A stretch of 64,000 nt of DNA. Origin: Thermodesulfobacteriota bacterium. GTDB lineage: Bacteria > Desulfobacterota > Binatia > Bin18. Shown here piece after piece: positions 13,775 to 29,449 of the stretch (position 1 is the first letter of the stretch; the number at the start of each line of letters is the position of its first letter). The stretch spans positions 4,128,001 through 4,192,000 of the forward strand of contig OZ219926.1 in NCBI GenBank assembly GCA_964291405.2, in the 5' to 3' direction. The position numbers and the translations under genes are program-made. The notes beneath the pieces are model-generated. The model saw only the letters and a program-made list of their open reading frames with translations. It made no database searches and was not told the DNA's origin.

Positions 13775-14496
13775 AGCCTCTCGTCAACCCAAAAGATGGT
13801 AGTCTGCTCGTCCGCATCCCCGCGGGCGAATATTGCATGGGAAGCGAGAGCGGGACGCCGCCCGAACGTCCGGCCCACCGGGTCTCGCTGGGGAGTTTTT
13901 ATATTGCCCAACACCCGGTGACGAATGCCCAGTACCGGCAGTTTGTCATCGACACTGGCCATCGTGCACCCTATCTCGATGATGCCCGGGTGGAACGTGA
14001 GAATTGGGACCAGGAGCGCCACGCTCCGCCGGCGGGGCGAGAAGCCCATCCGGTGGTCTTGGTCAGCTGGCATGATGCCCAGGCCTACTGCGCCTGGGCC
14101 GAGGGCCGGCTGCCAACCGAGGCCGAATGGGAAAGCGCGGCCCGTGGCGGGTTAGAAGACAAGCCCTATCCGTGGGGAGATGGGATCAGTCGGGAGTTGG
14201 CAAATTATGATAATCGGGCCGGGACCACCCCGGTCGGGAGCTATCCGTCCAATCCCTATGGTCTGTATGACATGGCCGGTAACGTCTGGGAGTGGGTGGC
14301 CGACTGGTACGACCCGCAGTACTATACAGTCTCCCCGACCGAGGACCCGCAGGGCTCGGCGACCGGAACGGTTAAGGTGTTGCGCGGAGGAGCCTGGCTG
14401 CTCTTCCCCGAGTTTTGCCGGGTTGCCTACCGCTTCCGCAACAACCCCAATTTTCGCTTCAATCTGATTGGCTTTCGTCTGGCGAAATCGGCCTGA
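13771..14496 (+). CDS. FGE-sulfatase (SUMF1/EgtB/PvdO) domain protein
   Basis: F/YxMG, VTNAQY, PVV.VSW.DA.AYC.W, RLPTEAEWE.AARG, NPYGLYDMAGNVWEW, RGG, GFR. Confidence 0.93.
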   Translation: MKPLVNPKDGSLLVRIPAGEYCMGSESGTPPERPAHRVSLGSFYIAQHPVTNAQYRQFVIDTGHRAPYLDDARVERENWDQERHAPPAGREAHPVVLVSWHDAQAYCAWAEGRLPTEAEWESAARGGLEDKPYPWGDGISRELANYDNRAGTTPVGSYPSNPYGLYDMAGNVWEWVADWYDPQYYTVSPTEDPQGSATGTVKVLRGGAWLLFPEFCRVAYRFRNNPNFRFNLIGFRLAKSA

Positions 14497-15952
14497 GCAG
14501 ACCCTCTTGATACAACTGGGCCAGGACCTGACGGACCTGGGCAGGCGGGCTCTGCCGCCCGTCGGGATGCCGCTGATAGGCGGCCAGGATATCCACAACG
14601 GCACGCTGCGTCTGCACGCAGCGCAGCAGGGTCGGGACATTGACTCCGGACAGAAAGCGCAGGCCGCGTGGGTAACGTGGAGTCACAACCGCGGGCCGGA
14701 GCTCAACATACGAGCCTTCGATAACAGGCCGCTCCTGGATACGCAGGTCAGGCGTTACCATTACGTGTGAAACCGGCTGGGAATCAAATGGAGAAAAGGC
14801 CGTGGACGGCTGCTGCGGAGCGGCGGGACCCGCGTCGGGCTCAAGGCGCAGGCAACGGTGCTGCCAAAAGGGACGGTCCGGCCAGCGACCCTCTTCCGCG
14901 TAATAGCGGGCCGATTGTTGATAGTGGCTGCGATAGGTGTCTCGCTGACCGGCTTCGTACAGCTCGGCAGCCTGGGACTGCATGACGGGCCGCTGGAGTA
15001 TGGTGTTGACAACCACGGCGCCGGTAATGGCGGATGCCATGGCTTTCCGGACTCCCTCCGAGGACAAGGGATCAATGAACAGGCCGGCGTCACCGACGAG
15101 GAGGGTGCGGCCGGCGACAAACTGCCGCGCGGTATACAGGCTGGCATCAAAAACCTGAGGTGGGTGGGGAAGGTGCGCGTCAGCCAGAAAACCCGAGACA
15201 TAGGCCGCCTTGCGGAGCTCCTCGATATAAAAGCGCTGTAGTCCGACCCGCTTTATGGCGTGGCTGTGTCGCCAGTCAAGCAGCAGCGTGACATTCCGCT
15301 CGCCCGTGTGCAGCGGGACTGACCAGACCATGCCGTCCGCATAGGCTTCAAGCAGGGTGTTGGCGAAGTCTACGCCGGGTGGATTCCCCGCGTTTTGCCA
15401 ATAGCCCGTCAGGGCCAGGGTCTGGAAGACACTGTCCCGCTGGCGCAGGTTGTGGCGGGCGTATATGCCCGCGTGGCCGGTCGCATCAACACAGAATTCC
15501 GCCCGAATGCGCTCTCTCGAACCATAGCGGACGGTCACGCCGTGTTCCCCGTCAGGCCGGACGTCTCGCACCGGTTGTCCTTCCACAACCCGGACACCGG
15601 CCTGGCGAGCCTGATTGAGCAGAATCAGGTCAAAGTCGGCGCGCACAGACTGAAACCCGCGCCGGTGGTGATCCGAGCTGTAATACGCGGTACGCGGTCG
15701 AGGCGAGCCCCAACACACGCTGTGGCCAGACATCCGCAGAAAGCCGGCCTGTTCCACCTGCGTCCGGACACCCAGAAAGTCGAGCAGGGGGAGGATACTC
15801 GGGGTCAGGGACTCTCCAATCTGGTGCCGTGGAAAACGGCGCTTCTCAATAAGCACGACCCGATAGCCGAAGCCCGCGAGTTGGTGGGCGATAGTCGCTC
15901 CGGCCGGACCGCCGCCAGCAACTACGATGTCTGCTGCGGAAGGGAGTGTCAC
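14459..15952 (-). CDS. qhpG: FAD-dependent monooxygenase, QhpG-like (Trp hydroxylation for CTQ)
   Basis: GGGPAG, FPR..IGESL, DATG, GDA..F.DPLSS.G halogenase-like fold; adjacent to qhp genes. Confidence 0.8.
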   Translation of the reverse strand: MTLPSAADIVVAGGGPAGATIAHQLAGFGYRVVLIEKRRFPRHQIGESLTPSILPLLDFLGVRTQVEQAGFLRMSGHSVCWGSPRPRTAYYSSDHHRRGFQSVRADFDLILLNQARQAGVRVVEGQPVRDVRPDGEHGVTVRYGSRERIRAEFCVDATGHAGIYARHNLRQRDSVFQTLALTGYWQNAGNPPGVDFANTLLEAYADGMVWSVPLHTGERNVTLLLDWRHSHAIKRVGLQRFYIEELRKAAYVSGFLADAHLPHPPQVFDASLYTARQFVAGRTLLVGDAGLFIDPLSSEGVRKAMASAITGAVVVNTILQRPVMQSQAAELYEAGQRDTYRSHYQQSARYYAEEGRWPDRPFWQHRCLRLEPDAGPAAPQQPSTAFSPFDSQPVSHVMVTPDLRIQERPVIEGSYVELRPAVVTPRYPRGLRFLSGVNVPTLLRCVQTQRAVVDILAAYQRHPDGRQSPPAQVRQVLAQLYQEGLLRPISPDESQSD

Positions 15953-16099
15953 GTCAGACTGCCAATGGCGAATCGTAGAATTGTTGCTTGGAGCTTATGC
16001 CGTCGGATCAGGAAGAGCAACACGAGGGCCGTGTCTATTTCGTCTCCGGCCAAGCTGCTGTACAGTCGGCCTGGTATTCGTCCTCTCAGGACTGTCGCT

Positions 16100-17839
16100 A
16101 TGCATATTGCCTCGGTACTCTCCCGTTTCTATCGGCTGTCGCCCTTTGTGAAGCCGTATGTGCGCAGAATCGGTTTCATCTTCCTCCTGTCCTCCTTTGG
16201 CACCGTTCTCGGTCTGCTCTGGCCGTTGTTTACCAAAATCCTGATTGACGATGTTTTGCTCGCACGCAACATATCGCTCTTGGTGACGCTGTGCGGGATC
16301 ATGCTGGGTGTCACGCTGCTCGGTTATGGGGTAGGGGCGATCAATCGCTATCTCTACACCCAGGTTACGGCACGCGTTTTATTTGCGCTCAGACAGCACC
16401 TCTTCGCCCATTTGCAGAAGCTCTCTCTCCGCTTCCATACCCAGGTCAAAGTGGGCGATCTCCTGTCGCGCCTGAATACCGATATTGCCGAGATTCAGTC
16501 CGTCCTCACCGACGCGGCCTTCACCTTTGTCACCAATATCTTCGTCCTGCTGGCAACCGTGGGATTTCTCATCTGGCTCAACTGGCGGCTCTTTCTGGTC
16601 AGCCTGCTCGTTATCCCGCTCCAAATATATGGGGTACGCAAAATACAGCCGTATATGGTCGAGGAAACCCGCAAGGTGCGCGAGTTGAACGCCTCGATTT
16701 CCGCCTTTCTGGTTGAGTCCCTGTCGGCCATCAAATTCGTCAAGCAGTTTGGTGCGGAGCCTACCCAATTGGGGCGTTTGGGCCGACTGGGTCAACGCTT
16801 TGTTGCGCTGGTGACACGGTTTGAAATGATCGGCTATATCGGCAGCACGACCGCGACGGCTACGACGTTTCTGGGCAGTACCCTGGTCACCCTCTACGGG
16901 GGCTATCTGGTGATTGAGGGCCAGATGAGTATTGGCAGTCTGGTTGCCTTCGCCGCCTACCAGTCGCGCGCCTTCAGTCCTATCCAGGTTCTAATGGACC
17001 TGTACCTACGCATCGAGCGGGCTGGCGTGTCCGTGGACCGGGTGTTCGAGTTTCTGGATATCGGACAGGAATATACCGAGCCGTCCGGCGGGACCTTACG
17101 CCCCGAAGGGCTACACGGGGAGATCGAATTTCGTGACGTATCGTTCGGCTATCAGACCAACGCTCCGGCCAGTCAGCCGGTGTTGCGTCAGGTGAGTTTT
17201 CTGGTGGGGGCCGGGCAGCGCCTGACCGTTCTGGGACCGAGCGGAACGGGCAAGTCCACGCTCGTCGACCTCCTGATACGGCTGTATGAGCCCCAGGCCG
17301 GGACCATCTGCCTGGACGGTCATGACGTGAGGGAGTTGGACCTGGTATGGCTACGTCAACATGTGGTCGTCATCGGCCACGAGCCCTTTCTATTTCACGC
17401 CTCGATTCTGGAAAACGTGTCGTACGCCAGCCCGGAGGCAAGCCGCGAAGAGATCGTTGCGGCGGTCACAGCAGTTGGCCTGCACGAGTATGTGACCACG
17501 TTGCCTGACGGTTACGAGACCACTGTGGGCGAACGGGGCACGCGCCTGTCGGCCGGACAGCGTCAGCGCATTGCCCTGGCCCGCGCCCTGCTCAAAAAGC
17601 CCCGGATTCTGGTGCTGGACGAAGCCCTGTCCGGCCTTGATGTCGAAAGCGAAGCCGACCTCCGTCAGACCTTGTCTGCGGTGATGCGAGGCTGCACGAC
17701 ACTCGTGGTGACCCATCGGTTGAGCTCTCTCCACGCCGACGATGCGGTTGTCGTGCTTAAGCACGGCGCGGTCGAGTGGCAGGGAACTTACCGGGAACTG
17801 ATCCGAGCGCCTGACATCTTACAGGCCGCCACCGGGTAG
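16100..17839 (+). CDS. qhpF: ABC exporter (TMD+NBD), QhpF-like
   Basis: TM domain, GPSGTGKST, LSAGQRQR, LDEA; likely start ATG 16100; qhp context. Confidence 0.82.
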   Translation: MHIASVLSRFYRLSPFVKPYVRRIGFIFLLSSFGTVLGLLWPLFTKILIDDVLLARNISLLVTLCGIMLGVTLLGYGVGAINRYLYTQVTARVLFALRQHLFAHLQKLSLRFHTQVKVGDLLSRLNTDIAEIQSVLTDAAFTFVTNIFVLLATVGFLIWLNWRLFLVSLLVIPLQIYGVRKIQPYMVEETRKVRELNASISAFLVESLSAIKFVKQFGAEPTQLGRLGRLGQRFVALVTRFEMIGYIGSTTATATTFLGSTLVTLYGGYLVIEGQMSIGSLVAFAAYQSRAFSPIQVLMDLYLRIERAGVSVDRVFEFLDIGQEYTEPSGGTLRPEGLHGEIEFRDVSFGYQTNAPASQPVLRQVSFLVGAGQRLTVLGPSGTGKSTLVDLLIRLYEPQAGTICLDGHDVRELDLVWLRQHVVVIGHEPFLFHASILENVSYASPEASREEIVAAVTAVGLHEYVTTLPDGYETTVGERGTRLSAGQRQRIALARALLKKPRILVLDEALSGLDVESEADLRQTLSAVMRGCTTLVVTHRLSSLHADDAVVVLKHGAVEWQGTYRELIRAPDILQAATG

Positions 17840-17861: not shown

Positions 17862-18575
17862 TCACGTGTGACTCGTCTGTTGGAGATAGGTCCGGGCGGT
17901 TTCTGGCGTCAAGTCTGGGTGGCGCTCGGCCCGGAGGGCGAGCGTAGCGGCAATATGCGCTGAGGCAAAACTATGGCCGTAAAAGTTCTGCGTCTGGGCC
18001 GGGCCGGGCAGGGGGCGTGGATAGGGATGGGCACGAAAGGGAACCGGGCTGTCTGTGAGGGCGCGGTATTCGTCCCACGCGCAGCTTTCATCTGCGGCCA
18101 CGCCTATGACGCCGGGTAAGGTTGCGGGTAACACATCCGAGCGGTCCGGGGGAGAAGACGCAATCAGGATGAGCTTTGCTTCTTGTGCTTGGGCGACCAG
18201 GGCCGAGAGCGGCTGGCGATGCTGCGCGTTAATCATTCCCAGACTCAGACTGATGATTTTCATGCGCTGTCCAATGGCCCAGCCCAAGGCCGCTTCCAGA
18301 ACCGGAAATGAAGTGGCCAGATGGTCCGTAAAAATCTTAACCGCGTAGAGCTCGGCTTGGGGAGCTTTGGCACGGACCACCCCGGCGAGGGCGGTCCCGT
18401 GCCCGATGTGATCGGGGTACTCCGGGCTGGTCTGGACCTCGTTCTCCTCGTTCAAGAAAAAATGGATGCCGCCCGCGACGCTGCCAACATGCGAATGCTG
18501 GGCATTCACCCCGCTGTCGATAAGCGCGACTTTAACCCCCGCCCCGGTCGGCGCCCCGTCCCTGTCCTGACCCAT
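17862..18575 (-). CDS. qhpE: Subtilisin-like leader peptidase QhpE
   Basis: Small S8 protease with IDSG, HGT, GHSFAS triad; divergent from qhpA. Confidence 0.88.
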   Translation of the reverse strand: MGQDRDGAPTGAGVKVALIDSGVNAQHSHVGSVAGGIHFFLNEENEVQTSPEYPDHIGHGTALAGVVRAKAPQAELYAVKIFTDHLATSFPVLEAALGWAIGQRMKIISLSLGMINAQHRQPLSALVAQAQEAKLILIASSPPDRSDVLPATLPGVIGVAADESCAWDEYRALTDSPVPFRAHPYPRPLPGPAQTQNFYGHSFASAHIAATLALRAERHPDLTPETARTYLQQTSHT

Positions 18576-18660
18576 GCCTTGTCCCTTGTAAGCAAAGCAT
18601 ACCAAATATGCCCGTTTATGCGAGGGAGAAAATGGTATCTACAACTCCGGTTCTTTCCAT

Positions 18661-18688
18661 TTGACTCTCACTCAGAGAGGTATAGAAT
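18661..18688 (+). promoter_or_regulatory. Putative sigma70 promoter of qhpA1 operon
   Basis: TTGACT-16 nt-TAGAAT; overlapping CTCTC-N5-GAGAG inverted repeat. Confidence 0.45.
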
Positions 18689-18744
18689 CCGGCTACTGCG
18701 TCAGAGATGGAGACCAGTGTTTCAGCCTGGAGGAGAGGACAGGT

Positions 18745-20424
18745 ATGACGACCGGAAAAACATGGAAACGTATGAGAAGGCACATCTGGGTATTGCTCGT
18801 GTTGGCGGGGCTCGTTGGCACGACCCATGATGTCAAGGCTGCGGAACACCAGGCGACGCCTTCCGCCCGAGAAACGTTGGTGATCCGCTGTATACGTTGC
18901 CACGCGCCGCAAGGAGAGAATGGCAAGCTTGACGCGATTGAAGCCCAGCGCAAGTCACCCGAAGGCTGGAGCATGACGCTCAGCCGTATGGTCCGAACGC
19001 ACGGGGTCGAATTGCAGGACGGAGATGCCCGCATTCTGGTCAAATATCTGAGCGATCACTACGGGCTGGCTCCCAAAGAAGTCGAGCCCTATCGCTTTAT
19101 TCTCGAACAGCGCAATACCCGCACCACGCAGGACGTGCCCAAGCCCCTCCAGGCTGGCTGTATCCAGTGCCATACCTACGCACGGATCGCCTTGCAGCGC
19201 CGGACGCAGGACTCGTGGGAGCGGCTGCCGGACGCCAAGGTCGCACTCATGGCGAATATCGGCAGTGAGACCGCCTCCGCCGGCCAGTTGAAGGATTATT
19301 GGTTTGATGATGCAAAGAAAGCTGCGGTGCCCCATCTGATCGAGCACCAGCCGTTTGAGACCGAAGCCTGGACGGCCTGGCAGGCGGCCAAAAAGCCGAG
19401 CTATGCCGGTACTTGGCTGGTGGTTGGCCATGACCCCGGCCGCGGCGGGGATTACACCGGGCAACTCACGCTGACCGCCGGGGAGGACGATCAATACACT
19501 GGCACATTTTCCTACACGTTTGCCGACGGCTCTCGGATGGAAGGCTCCACGACCGGGACGATATACACCGGCTTCCAGTGGCGCGGCGTTGCCCAAGCCA
19601 AGGAAAGTGGACCGGCCGGCCGGGAGATGCGACAGCGCGAGATTTTCTTTGCCTCCGAAGACGGGAACACCGTTTCCGGCCGGCGCTTGCTGACCAACCT
19701 CGGCGACCTGGGCATGAATGAAACCTGGTATCGCCGCCGGGGCGGGGCGCAGCTGCTGACGGTCAGTCCAGCCATGATCCAAACCGGCTCTCCCCAGACA
19801 GTAAATATTTTCGGGATGGGCTTCTCCGGGGACACGCTGTCGGCGGATAAAATTTCTTTTGGCGAGGGCGTGGGGGTGTTGTCCCTGCGGCTCGATGGCA
19901 ACCAGACGATTGTGGCGGAAGTCTTTGCCAAGGCTGGCGTGGCAGAAGGGCTGCGCACGGTCTCCATTCAAGGGGTGGCGGGAACGGGGCAGGTCGCGGT
20001 CTACGAGGCGGTCGATTACATCCGCATCACGCCGGAACGGGGCTTCGCCCGGCCCGGCGGCATTCGGACGCCAAAAATTTTTCAGCAGTACGAAGTGGTA
20101 GGCTATGCGAACGGCCCGGATAACGCCAAGGGCACGGACGACGATGTCAAGCTGGGACGGATCGGCCCGGTCAAGTGGAATCTGGAAGAGTACGTGAAAC
20201 GTCCGAACGACGACGATATTCAGTATGTCGGTGCGGTCGACCAAACCGGCCTGTTTCACCCCAACGAGGATGGGCCGAATCCCAAACGCCACCTGATGGA
20301 AGGTAATGTGGGCGATGTCTGGGTGGAAGCCTGGTATACGCCCGAGGGCGAAAAACGACCCATGGGCGCGCGCGCCCACTTATTAGTGATGCCGGCCAAG
20401 TTTGTCTTCCCACCGATTGAATAG
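18745..20424 (+). CDS. qhpA: QHNDH alpha subunit (diheme c), copy 1
   Basis: CIRCH and CIQCH, RK.PEGW.MT..RM...HG, ARIALQRRT, NGPD...GT.DD, GPNP.R, C-terminal PPIE. Confidence 0.95.
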   Translation: MTTGKTWKRMRRHIWVLLVLAGLVGTTHDVKAAEHQATPSARETLVIRCIRCHAPQGENGKLDAIEAQRKSPEGWSMTLSRMVRTHGVELQDGDARILVKYLSDHYGLAPKEVEPYRFILEQRNTRTTQDVPKPLQAGCIQCHTYARIALQRRTQDSWERLPDAKVALMANIGSETASAGQLKDYWFDDAKKAAVPHLIEHQPFETEAWTAWQAAKKPSYAGTWLVVGHDPGRGGDYTGQLTLTAGEDDQYTGTFSYTFADGSRMEGSTTGTIYTGFQWRGVAQAKESGPAGREMRQREIFFASEDGNTVSGRRLLTNLGDLGMNETWYRRRGGAQLLTVSPAMIQTGSPQTVNIFGMGFSGDTLSADKISFGEGVGVLSLRLDGNQTIVAEVFAKAGVAEGLRTVSIQGVAGTGQVAVYEAVDYIRITPERGFARPGGIRTPKIFQQYEVVGYANGPDNAKGTDDDVKLGRIGPVKWNLEEYVKRPNDDDIQYVGAVDQTGLFHPNEDGPNPKRHLMEGNVGDVWVEAWYTPEGEKRPMGARAHLLVMPAKFVFPPIE

Positions 20425-20462: not shown

Positions 20463-21926
20463 ATGGAATTACACTTCCGTGCGGAAAACGCCCACGCTAT
20501 AACGGAGGGCAACCAGAACATTCTGGTTGCGGCCAAAAGCATGTCCATGTTTGTCATGGACCCGGTCTCCCAGGCCGTCCTCGATTATGTGCAGGCGCAT
20601 CCGCACGCGATCCAGGAAGAGCTGACCGCCAGTCTGGCCGAGCACTTCCCGCTGGCCGAAATAACCGAGACGATCCAGGAATTTATCACCTTAGAAATCC
20701 TGCAAACCCAGGAGCGTTCCGCTACTCCCGCTCCCCTGCCGGTGCTCGACGTCGAGCATTTCCCGGTGAGTTCGCTCGTTGTCAACGTGGCCAATAAGTG
20801 TAACCTCCACTGCACCTACTGCTACGAACCCGAGGGGGCGAAATACGGCCCGTCGCCGGTCCAGATGGACTGGGAGACCGCGCGCGACAGCGTCGATTTT
20901 CTGTTCAAGAAGTCCGGCGCCAGCAAAGAGGTCAATTTGATTTTCTTTGGCGGAGAGGCGCTGCTGAACTTCAAGCTCATGCGTCGGACCGTCGCCTATG
21001 CGGAAGAAAAGGCCCAGGCCGAAGACAAGGTCGTCGACTTTTCGCTCACGACCAACGGAACGCTCTTAACCGACGAGGTAATCGACTTTTTCCAGGCCCA
21101 TCGCTTTGGCGTGACCATCAGCATTGATGGTCCCAAAGACCTGCACGACAAGCGGCGCGTTTTTCTTACAAAGCGGGGCGAACAGAAAGGCTCGTACGAT
21201 CTCTTACGGCCCCGCCTGGAACGCCTGCTGGAACGCTATACGGTCAGGCCGGTGGTCGCCCGGGTCACGGTCACAAAAGACGCCATCGATATCGTGCGCA
21301 CCTACGAGCATCTCACGCAGCTCGGTTTTTTTGAGGTTGGCTTTTCGCCGGTCACCGCCCAGGCCGAGACCGACTATGGCTTGGAGCCGGCCGATTTGCG
21401 TGAATTGCTGCGGCAGTTTCGCGAGCTTGGCGCGGTGTATATCGAGCGGGCGCTCAACCAGCAGTACACCGGGTTTTCAAATTTGAGCACCATGCTGACC
21501 GACATTCACCTGGGCACAAACAAGCTCTTTCCGTGCGGGGCCGGCCTGGGCCTGTTGGACGTGGACGGCAACGGTGATGTGTATTTATGTCATCGGTTTC
21601 CGGGCACCGAGGAACAAAAATACGGCAATGTCAAAGACGGCATTCAGTACGACCGGCTGAACGCCTTTATCAACGGTGCCCATCTGGGCAATAAGCCGGT
21701 ATGTCAGACCTGTTGGATTCGGGGCCTGTGCGGCGGCGGGTGCTACCACGAAGCCATGACCGAGTTTGGGGACACGGCACTGCCGAATCTGCACTACTGC
21801 GATTTCTTGCGGGAATGGACGGAATACGGCATTGGCGTGTATATGCAGTTGCAAGAACAAACCCCTGGGTTTGTCGAGCAGTATGTGTTACGCGGGCGTG
21901 GAGACGCCCCAAAAGAATTAACCTAA
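20463..21926 (+). CDS. qhpD: Radical SAM/SPASM thioether-forming maturase
   Basis: N-terminal RRE-like region, CNLHCTYC, PCGAG...LCHRF, C..C.....CGGGCYHEA; between qhpA and qhpC. Confidence 0.95.
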   Translation: MELHFRAENAHAITEGNQNILVAAKSMSMFVMDPVSQAVLDYVQAHPHAIQEELTASLAEHFPLAEITETIQEFITLEILQTQERSATPAPLPVLDVEHFPVSSLVVNVANKCNLHCTYCYEPEGAKYGPSPVQMDWETARDSVDFLFKKSGASKEVNLIFFGGEALLNFKLMRRTVAYAEEKAQAEDKVVDFSLTTNGTLLTDEVIDFFQAHRFGVTISIDGPKDLHDKRRVFLTKRGEQKGSYDLLRPRLERLLERYTVRPVVARVTVTKDAIDIVRTYEHLTQLGFFEVGFSPVTAQAETDYGLEPADLRELLRQFRELGAVYIERALNQQYTGFSNLSTMLTDIHLGTNKLFPCGAGLGLLDVDGNGDVYLCHRFPGTEEQKYGNVKDGIQYDRLNAFINGAHLGNKPVCQTCWIRGLCGGGCYHEAMTEFGDTALPNLHYCDFLREWTEYGIGVYMQLQEQTPGFVEQYVLRGRGDAPKELT

Positions 21927-21939
21927 GGGAGAGTGTGGG

Positions 21940-22281
21940 ATGAAACACCTCAAGGCAGCGAACTCCAAGGCCCGGGCCGTCACCGCCAGTGTGGCACAAG
22001 CGACTTCCACCGAGGAAGACGTTATCGGGATGGCCCAACCCATCGGTTGTACGACGATCTTCAATCCGGGCTGGGAGGCGAATCCGTGGGGTGGAGCCAG
22101 CAGCATGTGCGCCCCCATGGAGGCCGACCTGCTGAGCTGTGCGAATCTGTGCTGGTGGCCGGCTCAGGTGCCGGACAGCCTCCAGAGTGCTCCCGAGTGG
22201 GCGAAAGGCTGCTCGGGCATGAATCAGGAAGACTGGCGCAACCTCGACGTTGTTTTCCCCAAGACCGATACGTCCGGATAA
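21940..22281 (+). CDS. qhpC: QHNDH gamma subunit precursor, copy 1
   Basis: MKHLK..N.KA leader; core GCTT.F.PGWE...C.PMEADL..C...CWWPAQVPD. Confidence 0.95.
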   Translation: MKHLKAANSKARAVTASVAQATSTEEDVIGMAQPIGCTTIFNPGWEANPWGGASSMCAPMEADLLSCANLCWWPAQVPDSLQSAPEWAKGCSGMNQEDWRNLDVVFPKTDTSG

Positions 22282-22306
22282 ACGCAGCGGGCGGAAGGAG
22301 CCGGTG

Positions 22307-23398
22307 GTGCACGGGAAAAACAGGCCGCTGCTGGGGGGTGTGCTCTTTGTGTTCGGACTGCTGGTCCTGCCGCAGACGACCTGGGCCAAGTGGTACCTCC
22401 TGGCCAGCACGCATCCCAACAACCTGGTCGTCGTCGATACCGAAACCGACACGGTGGTCAAAGACATTGCCCTTGAGGGTCGTGGGCCGGCGCTCTATAT
22501 CGCGCCAAACCCGGCCCAGCCGCAGTTCGCCTATGTCGTAAATAATCTGGCCAAAAGCGTTGCCATGGTCGATCTGGACGAGGGCAAGCAGGTCAAAAGC
22601 TTTGACTTGTCGAGCGACAACGAGCTCGTACGCACCATGGCGATCGATGTGAACATGCAGGGCACCCGGCTGTTCGTGCACGAAATGCCGGTTCAGCAAG
22701 ACATGGGCCGCTATACGGCCCGGGACAACCGGATACGGGTCATTGACCTGGAGACCAATGAGACGCTGACCACGTTTACCGCTCCCCGCCAGGTGATGGG
22801 ATTAGCCTCTTCAAAAGACGGCAAACGCCTCTATCTGTTCAGCGTCGGTCAGGACATTTTTGTGCACAGCACGGAAGACGGCAGCCTACTCGATGTCATT
22901 CCGCTGGCAAACCGCAACATCAGCGGCATTGCGAGAACCGACGGCCTGCCGCTCGGCGGGACCTATCAGGAAAGCGGCCACCTCGTCTCTTTCGGGACCT
23001 TCACCACCGATTCCATCACCAATCAGGTGACGCTCGGTATCGGCTCTCTCGACCTGACTCAGGAAGACCCGGAACTGAAGGTCGTTGAATTGCAGCCTTT
23101 TGTCGAAGGCGATTATGTGCTCACGGGTGCGCTGTCGCCGCATACGAACAAGGCCTATTTCGCATACAACAGTTTGTGGAAGGTTGACCCGAAAACCCGT
23201 CACATTGAGAAAAAGGTGTCGCTGTCCAACACCTATTTTGCGCCGCTCGTTCACCCCGAAGGCAAGAAGGTCTACTGCGGCAGCAACTGGCACGATGTCG
23301 CGGTCTACGACGCGGAATCACTCGACCTGATCACCAAAGTCCCCCTGGGCCATTCGCAGACCGGAGGGGTCAGTGTCTTGCGGTTTGTGAATCGTTAG
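22307..23398 (+). CDS. qhpB: QHNDH beta subunit (beta-propeller), copy 1
   Basis: Signal peptide, HPNNL.VVD, PRQV propeller repeats, follows qhpC; GTG start after AGGAG. Confidence 0.88.
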   Translation: MHGKNRPLLGGVLFVFGLLVLPQTTWAKWYLLASTHPNNLVVVDTETDTVVKDIALEGRGPALYIAPNPAQPQFAYVVNNLAKSVAMVDLDEGKQVKSFDLSSDNELVRTMAIDVNMQGTRLFVHEMPVQQDMGRYTARDNRIRVIDLETNETLTTFTAPRQVMGLASSKDGKRLYLFSVGQDIFVHSTEDGSLLDVIPLANRNISGIARTDGLPLGGTYQESGHLVSFGTFTTDSITNQVTLGIGSLDLTQEDPELKVVELQPFVEGDYVLTGALSPHTNKAYFAYNSLWKVDPKTRHIEKKVSLSNTYFAPLVHPEGKKVYCGSNWHDVAVYDAESLDLITKVPLGHSQTGGVSVLRFVNR

Positions 23399-23406
23399 CG
23401 CCCGGT

Positions 23407-24039
23407 ATGTCTCGGACGATACTTACCCGCCGAAATGTTCTCCAGGGGATCGGCACCGCCGCCCTTCTCGGCCAGGCGTACAGTCTGGCGCATGCCGTTG
23501 AAAAAGGCGACGCCGCCAGCTTCGCCTCGGTTGTGAAACGCCGGCGCATGATCCGTAAGTACGAGGACAGGCCGGTCCCTGAAGAAGAGATCCGAGCGCT
23601 GCTGCGCTACGCCGTGCGTGCGCCCAGCGCGGGGAATCTACAGCCGTGGGAGTTTATTCTGGTGCGTGACACCGAGGTCCGAGACCAACTCGCCAAGGCG
23701 GCGATGAATCAGAACTCGGTTGCCACCGCGCCGATTATTGTTGCCACCTGTGCCGATATCCAACGCATGGGTGAGAAATACGGCACGCGCGGCGCTTTTT
23801 ATAGTTTAGTGGATACCGCGTTTGCCTCATTACTCATTTTGTTAGGCGCAACCGAGCGCGGGCTCGGGGCCTGCTTTGTTGGCGCGTACAATCCGGAAGA
23901 AGTCGCCAAGATATTGCAACTGCCCAGCCACGTCCGTCCGGTCGGACTCATCACCCTCGGTTATCCTGCGGAAAAGCCACGCAAACCGACGAACAAGAAA
24001 ATCCCGCTCGAGAACCTGATCCACGAGAATACGTGGTAG
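23407..24039 (+). CDS. Nitroreductase family flavoprotein with Tat signal
   Basis: TRRNVL..AHA signal; RR.IRKY, APSAGNLQPWEF, GLGACFVG, LGYPAE. Confidence 0.9.
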   Translation: MSRTILTRRNVLQGIGTAALLGQAYSLAHAVEKGDAASFASVVKRRRMIRKYEDRPVPEEEIRALLRYAVRAPSAGNLQPWEFILVRDTEVRDQLAKAAMNQNSVATAPIIVATCADIQRMGEKYGTRGAFYSLVDTAFASLLILLGATERGLGACFVGAYNPEEVAKILQLPSHVRPVGLITLGYPAEKPRKPTNKKIPLENLIHENTW

Positions 24040-24175: not shown

Positions 24176-25840
24176 ATGGAGGGCATGATCATGAACGCTA
24201 TATGGGGGAGACGTGGTCGACTAAGCGGATACCTCTTGAGCCTCTTCTTGGGCTTCACGCTCTGTTTTGCAGGACAACCCGCGTGGAGCCAGGAGATGAC
24301 CGGGCCGGCTTTGCTGGAGACGCGTTGCTCGGGTTGTCATCCTCCTCATGAAGAAGGGGGCAAGCTTGACGCGATCGAACATCAGCGCAAGCCCCCCGAA
24401 GCCTGGGAGATGACTATCTATCGCATGTTGCGCACCCACGGAGCGAATCTGGAAGCGGGTGAGGCTCGCATCCTGATCAAATACCTGAGCGATCAGTATG
24501 GCCTGGCACCGGCGGAAGTCAAACCCTTTCGGTATGCCTTAGAGAAACGGAACAATACGATAGAAAAACATGTTCCCAAGGAAGTGAAGGGCACCTGTGT
24601 GGCCTGTCACTCCTATGCGCGGATCGCCCTGCAGCGCCGTACGCCCGAATCGTGGGGGCGTCTGCCGGACCTGACCGCGGCCTTGCTGCCGAATATCGAA
24701 AACCAGGTCGCCTCAACGGGGCTGCTGGGCGACTTCTGGTACACGCTGGTGCGGAAGGATACCGTCCCCTATCTGGCGCAGACCTATCCGTTTGACTCAG
24801 CCTCTTGGAGGCAGTGGCAGGCCAAGCCCAAACCGGACTACGCCGGGGTCTGGAATGTGGTCGGTCACGACCCTGGAAAGGGCGGGGCCTACACCGGCCG
24901 GATGACGCTGACCGCGTCGGGGAACGATAACTACGAGGGCCAGCTCGCGTATGACTTTGCCGATGGGTCGCGTATGACCGGGAAAAACACTGTGACGATG
25001 TATACCGGCTTCCAGTGGCGGGGTGTGGCCGAGGTCGAGGGCGGCAAGACCCACAAAGAAATCTTTTTTGCCAATGAGGACGGAACGGTCGTAAGCGGGA
25101 GGCGGTTGCTGACGCTTGTTGGCGATCTGGGCATGGAAGAGACCTTATACCGGAATACGGGCCAGGCAAAATTTTTGGCCGTCAGCCCGGCCGCGCTCAA
25201 AGTCGGCGAGCGCTCCACGCTCAGGCTGTTTGGCATGAACCTCCCCGAGTCCCTGACCGCGGCTTCGATCTCTCTGGGAACGGGTGTGACGGTTCAGTCT
25301 CTGCGGAGGGTTGATGCTGATACGGTCATGGCCGACGTGGTAGTGGGGAAAAAGGCAAAAGTAGGCGCTCGACAGGCTCGGATTCGGGGAGTTGATGGGG
25401 AACAGTCGCTGGCCGTCTACGATACGGTTGACTATATCCGTCTCTCTCCGGAACAGGCGTTTTCTCGGCCTGGTGGCATTCGCACCCCCAAAATTTTTCA
25501 GCAGTTTGAGGCGGTCGGATATACAAATGGTCCGGACGGACGAAAGGGAACTGACGACGATATGAAGCTGGGACGTGTCGGTCCGGTGACGTGGAAGCTG
25601 AACGAGTACGTGCGGCGCGTCAATGATGACGATGTGCGCTTTGTCGGTGCCATGGATGCCCACGGTCTTTTTACGCCGGCCGAGGACGGTCCAAATCCAA
25701 AACGGCACTTGCAGCAGGGCAATGTCGGCGATGTCTGGGTGGAGGCCTGGTATCGGCCAAATGGCGCCCGTCGGCCTATGGGAGCGCGCGCCCACCTGCT
25801 GGTCATGCCGGCAAAGTATAATTTTCAACCGATTGAATAG
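24176..25840 (+). CDS. qhpA: QHNDH alpha subunit (diheme c), copy 2 (start may be 24185/24191)
   Basis: CSGCH and CVACH; colinear paralog of copy 1. Confidence 0.95.
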   Translation: MEGMIMNAIWGRRGRLSGYLLSLFLGFTLCFAGQPAWSQEMTGPALLETRCSGCHPPHEEGGKLDAIEHQRKPPEAWEMTIYRMLRTHGANLEAGEARILIKYLSDQYGLAPAEVKPFRYALEKRNNTIEKHVPKEVKGTCVACHSYARIALQRRTPESWGRLPDLTAALLPNIENQVASTGLLGDFWYTLVRKDTVPYLAQTYPFDSASWRQWQAKPKPDYAGVWNVVGHDPGKGGAYTGRMTLTASGNDNYEGQLAYDFADGSRMTGKNTVTMYTGFQWRGVAEVEGGKTHKEIFFANEDGTVVSGRRLLTLVGDLGMEETLYRNTGQAKFLAVSPAALKVGERSTLRLFGMNLPESLTAASISLGTGVTVQSLRRVDADTVMADVVVGKKAKVGARQARIRGVDGEQSLAVYDTVDYIRLSPEQAFSRPGGIRTPKIFQQFEAVGYTNGPDGRKGTDDDMKLGRVGPVTWKLNEYVRRVNDDDVRFVGAMDAHGLFTPAEDGPNPKRHLQQGNVGDVWVEAWYRPNGARRPMGARAHLLVMPAKYNFQPIE

Positions 25841-25930
25841 GGATTGAACAAACCCTGGCGTTAGAGCGAGCAGTATGCTACGAGGCTGGGAGGAGACGCG
25901 AGAGTTTCCGGTCAGCGCAAGGAGGGCGTG

Positions 25931-26263
25931 ATGAAACACCTCAAGGCCGCGAACCATAAAGCGCATAGAGTCGAGACCGCCCCCGCGGCCAAACGGCAGG
26001 TGCCGGAAGACGTTCTGGGCATGGCCCAGCCGATGGGCTGCACCACGATTTTTAACCCCGGCTGGGAGGCGAACCCCTGGGGCGGCACCGCGGGCATGTG
26101 CGCGCCAATGGAGGCTGACCTGCTCGGCTGTGCCAATGTGTGTTGGTGGCCGGCTCAGGTGCCCGACAGCCTGCAAAACTACCCGGAGTGGGCCAGTGCC
26201 TGTTCGGGTGTCAACGCCGAGGACTGGCGTAGCTTGGAGCTGGTCTTCCCCGAGAAGAAATAG
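25931..26263 (+). CDS. qhpC: QHNDH gamma subunit precursor, copy 2
   Basis: MKHLKAANHKA leader; GCTTIFNPGWE...CAPMEADLLGCANVCWWPAQVPD. Confidence 0.95.
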   Translation: MKHLKAANHKAHRVETAPAAKRQVPEDVLGMAQPMGCTTIFNPGWEANPWGGTAGMCAPMEADLLGCANVCWWPAQVPDSLQNYPEWASACSGVNAEDWRSLELVFPEKK

Positions 26264-26315
26264 CCGCAGAGTACCGTCTCAAAATCCGTGCGGTGAATAA
26301 CGAGGGGTTTCCAGT

Positions 26316-27140
26316 ATGAACCCTGGGCAAAGACAGCGTCTGTGGAGCCGAGGCGTTTTCTTTGCGGGACTGTTCCTGCTCCTGCACGGGTTCCCTCCGC
26401 TCGTTGAGGCGGACTGGTATATCGCCTCGACAACCATCCCACCGAACTCCTCCGCTTCTGCTTGGCGTCCTCCTCAGGTTGTGACGCGTGTTGCCCGGAA
26501 CCGACTGACCTACGAGACCCGAGCCTGGACGCAAATTATCGACCTCAACACGCAGCAGCTCTCGATTATCAGCCATCTGGGACAGGTGTACTGGCAGGGA
26601 CCAATCGAGGCCTACGCCACGGTTATGGCAGCGCGCACCCAGGAACGGCGGGCGCAGGCGGAACGCTTGATGAACCAGCTCCCTCATGGGCCACAACAAT
26701 TCGTGACAAGACGAGCCGGTCCGTTTGATAGCCTGAGCCCCAGGCTGACGATTACGATCACCCCGATGTCGGAGACCGAGTCGGTCGCCGGGTATACGGC
26801 TCACAAATATCGTATCCAGCGGAACGGCATCGCGTATGAAGAAACCTGGTTGGCTGAGAAGATCAAGCTGGGGACGGATGTTGATATGTCCCGGCTGAAC
26901 GCGTTTATCGACAAGCTGCAAACTTCTCGAACGACGCCGCCAGGAGCTGTGCTCGCCGAATTAACCGAGCTGATCAATATAGGCTACCCAGTCAGGACCG
27001 TGAACCTGGTCACCCAGGTGGTCAAGGAAGTGGTCCAGGCCGAGCAGCGGCCGATTCGGGCTGAGGTATTTATGGTGCCGGATGGCTATACCAAAAAGGC
27101 GCTGGTCGAGATCATGTTTCCAACAAGGAGGCGTTTATGA
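26316..27140 (+). CDS. Exported DUF4412-like protein
   Basis: Signal peptide; IIDL....L.I..H, ETE.VAGY...KY, E.W.A, GYP, F.VP.GY.K pattern. Confidence 0.65.
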   Translation: MNPGQRQRLWSRGVFFAGLFLLLHGFPPLVEADWYIASTTIPPNSSASAWRPPQVVTRVARNRLTYETRAWTQIIDLNTQQLSIISHLGQVYWQGPIEAYATVMAARTQERRAQAERLMNQLPHGPQQFVTRRAGPFDSLSPRLTITITPMSETESVAGYTAHKYRIQRNGIAYEETWLAEKIKLGTDVDMSRLNAFIDKLQTSRTTPPGAVLAELTELINIGYPVRTVNLVTQVVKEVVQAEQRPIRAEVFMVPDGYTKKALVEIMFPTRRRL

Positions 27141-28240
27141 AGGGCAAGAGTCTGTTATGGGCAGTGTCAACGCTGAGTGCGCTGGTCCTCGTTTGTAGTC
27201 TACCCGGCCTGGTGTGGGCCAAATGGTATATCCTGACCGGCGCCCATCCGAACTCCGTGTATGTGATTGATGCGGAAACCGATACGGTCGTGAAGACCAT
27301 CCCGCTTGAGGGAAAAGGGCCCATCTTTACCGTGGCGCCGAATCCAGCCCGACCCCAGTTCGCCTATGCGGTCACCAACCTCAGCCAAAGCGTGGCCCTG
27401 GTTGACCTGGACGAGGGAAAAGAGGTCCTGCGCTTTAATCTCTCCAACGACAACGAACTGGTCAGGACCATGGCCATTGATGTCAACCCGCAGGGCAATC
27501 GCCTCTACATCCATGAAATGCCGTTGAAGAAAGACCTGGGCAAATACGAGATACTGGAGACCCGCATCCGAGTCATCGATCTGGACACCAATACGGTCGC
27601 CAATGTGTTCCCCGCCCCCCGTCAGGTGATGGCGCTGGCGTCGTCCCAAGACGGGAAAAAGCTGTACGCCTTTAGCGTGGGCAGAGATATCTCGGTGCTG
27701 AATCCAGAGACGGGTCAGGTCGAGGACGTTATCCCCATGGCGGACTGGAACGTGACCGGCGCCGGCAAGCTGGAGGGACTGCCCTTGTGGAACCCCTATC
27801 AGGAAAACGACTACCTGGCCTCGTTTGCCGTGTATATGACGGACACGATTACCCAGCATGCCACCGTTGGAGTAGCCACCCTTGACCTCAAGCAGGCCAA
27901 TCCGGAGCTGCAAGTGGTTGAGCTTCAGCCCTATGAGGCCGAATGGTGGACGGCCCACGGGGCGGTATCGGCCAAAACCCAGAAGGCCTATCTCGGCTGG
28001 GACAAGCTGTGGAAGATGGATATCGCGACGCGCCAGATGGAAGAAGTGAGGCAGTTCGACACCAACAGTGTCTTCGGCTCTTTTCTCCATCCCGATGGGA
28101 CCAAAGTCTACTGCGGTGGAAACTGGAGTGCGTTGTCCGTGTTTGACGCCGACACGCTCAAGCCTCTCAAGAAGATTGATCTGGGGCACTCCCAAGCCGG
28201 TGCGGGTATCCGGTTTGTCAACCGCGAGAATGGGTTCTAA
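27137..28240 (+). CDS. qhpB: QHNDH beta subunit, copy 2
   Basis: Clear paralog of 22307-23398 (WAKWY.L..HPN, SNDNELVRTMAIDVN, LGHSQ). Confidence 0.88.
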   Translation: MKGKSLLWAVSTLSALVLVCSLPGLVWAKWYILTGAHPNSVYVIDAETDTVVKTIPLEGKGPIFTVAPNPARPQFAYAVTNLSQSVALVDLDEGKEVLRFNLSNDNELVRTMAIDVNPQGNRLYIHEMPLKKDLGKYEILETRIRVIDLDTNTVANVFPAPRQVMALASSQDGKKLYAFSVGRDISVLNPETGQVEDVIPMADWNVTGAGKLEGLPLWNPYQENDYLASFAVYMTDTITQHATVGVATLDLKQANPELQVVELQPYEAEWWTAHGAVSAKTQKAYLGWDKLWKMDIATRQMEEVRQFDTNSVFGSFLHPDGTKVYCGGNWSALSVFDADTLKPLKKIDLGHSQAGAGIRFVNRENGF

Positions 28241-28282: not shown

Positions 28283-29449
28283 GTGCTGATGCAATACGAT
28301 CTACTCCTCAAAGGCGGTCAGGTCATTGACCCCGGCTGGCCGCAGTACCACACACTCCAGCCCGCAGATGTGGCGATTCGGAACGGCAAGATAGCGGCCG
28401 TCGCCGCCGACATCCCCGCAGACCAAGCGGCCCGCGTGCGCGAGGTGTCCGGTCATATTGTCTGTCCTGGGTTGATCGACATTCACGCCCACACCTTTGT
28501 GAACGCCCACGATATGGGCGCCGAAACCGATCGGCGCTGTGCCGCGAGTGGGGTGACCACGCTGATTGACGCCGGCAGCGCCGGTTCAGCCACCTTCCCC
28601 GGACTGCGGCAGTATGTGGCCAATACGAGCGAAGTCCGGCTGCGCTGTTTCATTCATCTGTCAGCCCTGGGTCTGATTCACCTTCGGGTCGGAGAGCTGA
28701 TGCATATGGACTATGCCGACCCTGAGGGCTGTGCGCGCACGATTGCGGACAACCGCGACCTTGCCATAGGCGTCAAGCTGCGCTTCAGCAATAACGTCGT
28801 GCCGGACGCCGCCGGGACCGAACCGCTGCGTCTCGCCCGCCAGGCGGCCGATATGGCAGGCGTGCCATTGATGGTGCATATTACCGACGCGCTGCTGCCG
28901 GTCCCGCGGATTTTAGAATTCCTCAAGCCGGGCGATGTGGTGACCCACTGCTTCCACGGGTTTGCATACGGCATCATGGGACCGGAAAAGAAAGCCATTC
29001 TCAAAGAAGTCTGGGCGGCCCAGAAAGAGGGGATTATTTTTGACTGCGCGCACGGGCGCATGCACTTTCCGTTTCCGTTTGTCCGGCAGGCCCTGGACGC
29101 GGGATTTTTGCCCGACACGATCGCGACCGACCTGACGCTCCCCAGCGCGACCAGAGGGCCGGTCTTTGATCTGCCGACGACCATGTCCAAGCTCCTCAAC
29201 CTGGGCATGAGTCTGGAAGACGTGATCCGCTGCGTTACCACCAATCCCGCCCGCGTGATCGGGGAGGCTGAGCAAATTGGAACGCTCAGGCCCGGTGCCA
29301 CTGCCGATGTCGCCGTGCTCAGCCTTGAACAGGGAGAATTCGACTTTGTCGATACCGACCAGAACCATATGACCGGCGAGAAAAAGCTAGTCGCCCAGCT
29401 AACGGTCAAAGATGGACGGGTGTGGTATCAGGCCGACCGAGCGAGATAA
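28283..29449 (+). CDS. Amidohydrolase/deacetylase (dihydroorotase-like) family
   Basis: PGLIDIHAH, GVTT..DAGSAG, GVKLR, MVH, THCFHG, TD metal-binding motifs. Confidence 0.9.
   Translation: MLMQYDLLLKGGQVIDPGWPQYHTLQPADVAIRNGKIAAVAADIPADQAARVREVSGHIVCPGLIDIHAHTFVNAHDMGAETDRRCAASGVTTLIDAGSAGSATFPGLRQYVANTSEVRLRCFIHLSALGLIHLRVGELMHMDYADPEGCARTIADNRDLAIGVKLRFSNNVVPDAAGTEPLRLARQAADMAGVPLMVHITDALLPVPRILEFLKPGDVVTHCFHGFAYGIMGPEKKAILKEVWAAQKEGIIFDCAHGRMHFPFPFVRQALDAGFLPDTIATDLTLPSATRGPVFDLPTTMSKLLNLGMSLEDVIRCVTTNPARVIGEAEQIGTLRPGATADVAVLSLEQGEFDFVDTDQNHMTGEKKLVAQLTVKDGRVWYQADRAR

Follow-up and report, generated by a model that had tools for sequence, protein, structure and literature searches.

Translation and profile matches identify qhpC1, in the window (the whole stretch of 64,000 nucleotides analysed), as the gene of the CTQ-bearing gamma subunit of a quinohemoprotein amine dehydrogenase (QHNDH) in a Candidatus Binatia genome. 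The mature peptide carries a fifth cysteine, Cys61. Across the sequences compared, Cys61 is the usual state of the QhpC family, and the four-Cys crystallised, Pseudomonadota-type form is a minority. QhpC1 is an ordinary, typical Binatia-type QhpC and no oddity. The best reading of Cys61, held tentatively and with a little less than even confidence, is a fourth thioether made by QhpD, from C61 to E67 or D68.

The precursor scores 102.9 bits against Pfam PF08992 (cut-off 25) and, over residues 1-107, 129.7 bits against the NCBIfam equivalog NF037958, QH_gamma (cut-off 50). Translation starts at ATG 21940, downstream of the ribosome-binding site GGGAGAG. The leader has the motif MKHLKAxNxKA, in which M1, K2, H3, L4, K5, N8, K10 and A11 are near-invariant among 53 homologues. 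In the HMMER alignment, Met31 of the precursor falls on mature residue 1 of 1jju_C. Numbering from the Met codon at 22030, as in a preliminary description of this DNA, equals the P. denitrificans numbering and is kept here; this Met is not the start codon. We infer that QhpE cleaves the leader of QhpC1, about 30 residues long, against 28 residues for the QhpE-cleaved leader of the studied enzymes, P. denitrificans included (PMC7876137; this and the other papers are cited from the parts available). Residues C7, E16, C27, D33, C37, C41, W43 and D49 are all canonical and are invariant in 113 unique homologues. The pairs C7/E16, C27/D33, C41/D49 and C37/W43, together with N12, N39-L40, C61, E67 and D68, all named in the preliminary description, are confirmed by translation of 22030-22281. 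The ring spacings given there (+9, +6, +8) match those of C7-E16, C27-D33 and C41-D49 in the available part of PMC8172795, where the Cys precedes the acceptor in all three rings.

Table 1. Genes and residues of the qhp region, in positions of the window.
Feature	Position	Strand	Basis
qhpG, flavoprotein monooxygenase for CTQ formation	14459..15952	-	NF049967, 287.3 bits (cut-off 240)
qhpF-like ABC exporter	15953..17839	+	ABC_membrane and ABC_tran domains, starting at residue 260 in the ORF as listed; position conserved in loci
qhpE, subtilisin-like leader protease	17862..18605	-	NF049966, 168.5 bits (cut-off 165)
qhpA1, dihaem alpha subunit	18661..20424 (ORF as listed, start provisional)	+	TIGR03908, 419.5 bits (cut-off 274); four Pfam alpha-subunit domains
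qhpD, radical SAM/SPASM thioether-forming maturase	20463..21926	+	TIGR03906, 548.7 bits (cut-off 453)
qhpC1, QHNDH gamma-subunit precursor, 113 aa	21940..22281, stop included	+	ORF list, translation, profile matches
Leader peptide, 30 residues (MKHLKAAN..EDVIG), presumed to be recognised by QhpD and cleaved by QhpE	21940..22029	+
Mature gamma peptide, 83 residues	22030..22278	+	translation, HMMER alignment to solved chains
Asn12 codon; Asp in solved gammas	22063..22065	+
Asn39-Leu40; Asp-Pro in solved gammas	22144..22149	+
Cys61 codon TGC, fifth Cys	22210..22212	+
Glu67-Asp68, candidate thioether acceptors at +6/+7 of Cys61	22228..22233 (E67 22228-22230, D68 22231-22233)	+
qhpB1, beta-propeller subunit	22304..23398	+	TIGR03907, 173.1 bits, below equivalog cut-off 223; synteny in 72 loci
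Single Cys of mature QhpB1 (KVYCGSNW)	23303..23305	+
Nitroreductase-family flavoprotein gene	23407..24039	+	Pfam Nitroreductase 1.8e-32; NfsA-like/BluB-like ~1e-23, below cut-offs
qhpA2	24176..25840	+	second structural set
qhpC2, second gamma precursor, with C61 (26201-26203), N12 and N39-V40	25931..26263	+	second of two PF08992 matches in the genome
274-aa ORF between qhpC2 and qhpB2	26316..27140	+	weak DUF4412 match, 7.6e-06
qhpB2	27137..28240	+	second structural set
Amidohydrolase/deacetylase-family metallohydrolase gene	28283..29449	+	NF006689, 384 bits (cut-off 371)

Both solved gammas belong to the same family. QhpC of P. denitrificans (1JJU/1PBY chain C) aligns as 1jju_C with an E-value of 6.3e-26 and shares with QhpC1 the four Cys, E16, D33, D49, W43 and the CWWPAQV core; that of Pseudomonas putida (1JMX/1JMZ chain G) aligns as 1jmx_G at 1.3e-24, with the same cross-link residues. 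Each has four Cys in the aligned part, Asp12 and Asp39-Pro40, as the preliminary description had stated for the canonical form. Unlike QhpC1, with its Asn12 and Asn39-Leu40, both also have Ala61 and one residue less between position 61 and the Asp-Trp pair. The order qhpA-D-C-B, with qhpE, F and G nearby, is common to P. denitrificans and the window. Gammas of a further type, the S-type of soil metagenomes (e.g. P0058, L075-L153), resemble QhpC1 in their five Cys including C61; they differ in S/T/A at position 12, V/I at position 39 and a CFWPAQ core. They are of the short form, with Asp at +6 of Cys61 (CAAATKDW), and are about 45-52% identical to the QhpC1 mature peptide. The S-type operon is qhpA-D-C-B(-F-E), and its beta subunit, unlike QhpB1, has a different Cys pair.

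Cys61 was found in 41 of 51 close homologues; the remainder comprise six with A, V or K, three cut off by truncation ahead of the site and one out of frame. A library of 50%-identity cluster representatives gave 113 matches, many of them fragments, of which 46 were evaluable, with the C37/C41/W43/D49 core intact, Asp-Trp present and position 61 occupied. Cys61 is present in 37 of these 46, counted as sequences and not as species; the other nine have K (3), A (3), Y (1), L (1) and V (1). A genome scan with one genome per species, covering the best 80 of 594 relatives, yielded 72 loci and 82 gamma genes, the frameshifted L040 being left out. In these best 80 of 594, Cys61 occurs in 49 of the 82 gammas. 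They comprise 48 of 48 of the N-type (N12, N/G39, long form; Binatia clade) and one of the D12/D39-P40 type (L041); in D12-type genes Cys61 is rare (1/33). The gammas of the genome loci without Cys61 number 32 (A14, V14, T3, I1), all with D12 and with D39 followed by P, A or S; one further gene is truncated. In a metagenome scan seeded with the S-type (S/T/A12, CFWPAQ) and covering the best 80 of 582 relatives, every one of the 80 gammas has five Cys exactly in its mature part, Cys61 among them. Altogether, 85 of the 113 unique mature gammas in the alignment carry Cys61 and 28 do not.

On a tree of these 113 sequences, built with the columns around 61 omitted, the Cys61 state changes only twice. 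Read on this tree, the counts reflect few independent events, since they reduce to those two changes. The preliminary description had presented Cys61 as an extra feature of the QhpC1 peptide. This did not hold: Cys61 is the commonest state in each of the four samples except within the D12-type, and the paralogue QhpC2 has it too. The same description named commonness of C61 or N12 in canonical QhpC as evidence against its reading, and the family comparison largely found C61/N12 to be common, the exception being the narrow crystallised D12/D39-P40 type. A sample of 151 genomes from the window's phylum contained the family in 6. Assemblies of Candidatus Binatia are the source of the loci with 96-99% identity to qhpC1. 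Three contigs with Binatia-type qhp operons (L018, L020, L021) are labelled as Enterobacteriaceae or Klebsiella pneumoniae MAGs and are probably mis-binned.

The acceptor side of the proposed ring is regular. Thirty-five of the 37 Cys61 representatives could be parsed, two lying outside the parsing pattern. In 32 of the 35, the Asp of Asp-Trp lies six residues after C61, and in the other 3 it lies seven residues after it. Position +6 holds D (32), E (2) or Q (1, P0113), hence an acidic residue in 34 of 35. N-type gammas, one residue longer, have Glu at +6 in 48/48, and S-type gammas have an acidic residue there in 80/80. The C61-E67 pair falls within the spacings used by QhpD, because +6 is also the spacing of the known C27-D33 ring. 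Conservation of the acceptor is non-discriminating: D68-W69 is invariant in 113/113 unique gammas, 28 of them without Cys61, so the Asp has a role independent of any ring.

The cysteine side looks constrained. Where Cys is absent, position 61 drifts, to A/V/T/I in the genome loci and to K/A/Y/L/V in the cluster representatives, and this pattern suggests a constraint on the thiol itself. Seven-Cys representatives (P0101, P0107, P0113, P0143, P0155) have the four canonical Cys, C61 and a co-occurring pair, C6 or C18 together with C74, the latter near a ..LC.VPD end. In them Cys61 is the odd one out, as the two further Cys always occur together. No Cys partner for gamma Cys61 was found in the alpha subunit, QhpA conserving only two CXXCH pairs in both groups, and no Cys tracking Cys61 across clades was found in alpha or beta. 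Spacing, the lack of a cysteine partner, the odd Cys parity and the constraint at 61 favour a specific chemistry at Cys61, for which a fourth thioether would be the simplest candidate. An extra Cys-to-Glu/Asp bridge, as put forward in the preliminary description, survives as a live and reasonable though unproven idea, and would now apply to most of the family.

The enzyme, too, speaks for a further ring. QhpD acts at several sites and is the multi-site enzyme of the cluster; its second-best family is that of the PapB ranthipeptide maturases (309.4 bits, below the cut-off of 340). Among the PapB/CteB-type ranthipeptide and SCIFF maturases, which act on Cys-Xn-Asp/Glu peptides, the PapB model gives 309 bits and the SCIFF maturase model 266, both below their cut-offs. 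Substrates of the ranthipeptide and SCIFF enzymes are short secreted peptides, whereas the substrate of QhpD becomes an enzyme subunit. Against a fourth ring, the available parts of the papers on QHNDH or QhpC describe three Cys-Asp/Glu bonds and CTQ, though only for four-Cys proteins, and make no mention of a fifth Cys (PMC7876137, PMC13692751, PMC11951088, PMC8172795). AlphaFold2 models gave a mean pLDDT of 52.7 for the precursor (24-row alignment) and 45.5 for the mature peptide (113-row alignment), which is too low for distances.

Maturation may proceed as follows. In the cytoplasm, QhpD would bind the leader and make the three known rings, C7-E16, C27-D33 and C41-D49. It would also join Cys61 to the acidic residue at +6 through a fourth thioether, again from sulfur to methylene. 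This acceptor would be Glu67 in QhpC1, with Asp68 (+7) as the alternative; the shorter forms would use the Asp of their Asp-Trp pair. Such a ring would staple down the C-terminal third of the gamma peptide, which has no other cross-link. After the rings, QhpG would hydroxylate Trp43, QhpE would remove the leader and QhpF would export the peptide; with Cys61 bridged, no reactive thiol would reach the periplasm. In its wider form, the proposal is that most gammas, including both in the window, have four QhpD rings and CTQ, and that the three-ring Paracoccus/Pseudomonas gamma is a derived minority that lost the fourth ring (C61 to the +6 acid). This is possible, and is put forward with more doubt than assurance.

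Part of the evidence speaks for a simpler state, in which QhpD makes three rings only and Cys61 is a free thiol packed in gamma or against alpha/beta, with a packing or a maturation/redox role. This has a substantial chance, though one distinctly short of even, and a conserved free thiol is nearly as likely as the fourth ring. A small residue that is simply buried would show the same replacements, A/V/T/I. Asp-Trp, the acceptor, is invariant regardless of Cys61, and the clade counts all reduce to two state changes. Enzymes with four Cys fold and are functional with three rings only (PMC7876137, part available). Against a free thiol, at least three deep clades retain Cys strictly, whereas the site drifts freely once Cys is lost. 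Lys at 61 in P0040, P0056, P0064 and P0106 speaks against a tightly buried site. Unpaired thiols, moreover, are uncommon in exported proteins.

A partner in the beta subunit was considered for the Binatia clade only: an inter-subunit disulfide between gamma Cys61 and the QhpB Cys of KVYCGSNW. Of 47 N-type QhpB, 42 have that beta Cys, 36 of them as the sole Cys of the mature protein; it is found in 0/57 S-type and 1/32 DP-type (Asp12/Asp39-Pro-type) QhpB. Gamma is reportedly placed on the beta propeller in the solved enzymes, which would suit such a bond. However, gamma Cys61 is kept in L020, L023 and L041, which have Ala, Val and Leu at the beta column, and S-type gammas keep it without a beta partner. 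The column is elsewhere I/L/V/M/F, in a 'K-x-Y-V-G' propeller strand motif, and looks like a core position. A disulfide of this kind is highly improbable even within the Binatia clade. At the N-type Cys column, S-type QhpB has I (40), M (8), F (5), L (2) or V (2). On these 0/57, with the N-type exceptions L020 and L023, a general gamma-beta disulfide is rejected, and the inter-subunit ligation suggested in the preliminary description is not general, this being the only candidate column. Total Cys in S-type QhpB is 2 in 43/57, 0 in 9/57 and 3 in 5/57. Other conserved Cys pairs occur in QhpB, one in the D12-type (75% each) and a different one in the S-type (82% each). Haem ligation by Cys61, also suggested earlier, is rejected as unsupported, since QhpA has only its two CXXCH pairs.

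Other chemistry at Cys61, such as a bridge to another acceptor (e.g. D73), a metal ligand, a persulfide or another modification, is very unlikely. S-type gammas keep an Asp eleven residues after Cys61 (..NLDLVFP, 80/80) that corresponds to Asp73 of QhpC1 and would allow a bridge of this kind; in N-type gammas, however, the equivalent residue is D/E/N/S/A. Metal-binding partners are not evident, and the available parts of the QHNDH literature offer no precedent (PMC7876137, PMC13692751, PMC11951088, PMC8172795). The fourth thioether remains the preferred reading.

Asn12 and Asn39 are a separate matter. Among the cluster representatives, position 12 is occupied by D/N/S/T/A/E/F, and 39-40 vary just as much; throughout the N-type, N12 and N/G39 are constant. 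Both Asn are residues at variable surface positions. The preliminary description took Asn12 as a sign of altered active-site charge. This is unsupported, as Asp12 and Asp39 are listed in the available part of PMC7876137 as surface acidic residues, not catalytic ones, proposed by a docking model to meet Arg47, Arg70, Arg307 and Arg314 of QhpG. QhpG sequences from 20 D12-type loci and 21 N-type sequences were aligned and numbered on the Pseudomonas sequence L057. At position 47, Arg/Lys is found in 20/20 D12-type and 4/21 N-type sequences, the latter having mainly Ser (17). At position 70, Arg/Lys is kept in the D12-type and in 21/21 of the N-type, mainly as Arg. At position 310 the counts are 20/20 and 3/21 (N-type mainly Gly, 13, and Ala, 4), and at position 317 they are 20/20 and 0/21 (N-type mainly Ser, 16, and Thr, 4). 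Positions 310 and 317 of L057 would correspond to Arg307 and Arg314 by an offset of +3, which also fits Arg240. P. putida QhpG has the full Arg47/70/307/314 docking cluster (PMC7876137, part available), whereas in Binatia-type QhpG three of the four are mostly non-Arg, in parallel to D12N/D39N. Because of this parallel, the Asp-to-Asn changes at 12 and 39 seem to reflect docking surfaces of QhpC and QhpG that changed together rather than an altered active site. The co-change is a single clade-level event.

The qhp cluster of the window is complete, with G, F, E, A1, D, C1 and B1, followed by a second set, A2-C2-X-B2. QhpA, QhpD, QhpE and QhpG score above their equivalog cut-offs; QhpB1 and QhpB2 (173 and 181 bits) fall below the TIGR03907 cut-off of 223, yet are syntenic. 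The qhpF-like ORF as listed starts at 15395, overlapping the opposite-strand qhpG, and 15953 is a provisional start. The start of qhpB1 is GTG 22304 or 22307, preceded by GGAAGGAG; its signal peptide ends in ..TWA and the mature part begins at 22388. The only gamma genes of the genome, by PF08992 search, are qhpC1 and qhpC2, and qhpD is the sole copy within the cluster. The second structural set, 24176-28240, is without qhpD, E, F or G of its own. Since the leaders of QhpC1 and QhpC2 are alike, one maturation set probably serves both enzymes. Two gamma genes are present in 11 loci, the window included. The 274-aa ORF between qhpC2 and qhpB2 has no match among NCBIfam profiles and is kept in the same place in the loci holding the second set.

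Two neighbouring genes recur. The nitroreductase-family gene directly follows qhpB1 in 25 of the 31 N-type loci that extend far enough to show it, and in 0/31 loci without Cys61. Its product is a candidate for the reductase that serves QhpG or QhpD; for QhpG, the available part of PMC7876137 states that the physiological electron donor is unknown. The metallohydrolase gene stands after the qhp genes in most N-type loci and may prepare amine substrates.

QHNDH serves as the reference for the cross-linking of a protein, rather than a peptide, by a radical-SAM enzyme. To our knowledge, its gamma subunit has always been drawn with three Cys-Asp/Glu thioethers and CTQ, from two proteobacterial enzymes. 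The five-Cys form with a C-x5-D/E-W motif dominates the sequence space: Binatia have it, as do abundant lineages of soil metagenomes and several smaller types. A bridged Cys61 would give QhpD a fourth site and make the cage around CTQ larger than has been assumed. With a free Cys61, the strict conservation of an exported thiol would call for an explanation. Cys61 may be the overlooked fourth internal cross-link of the QhpC family.
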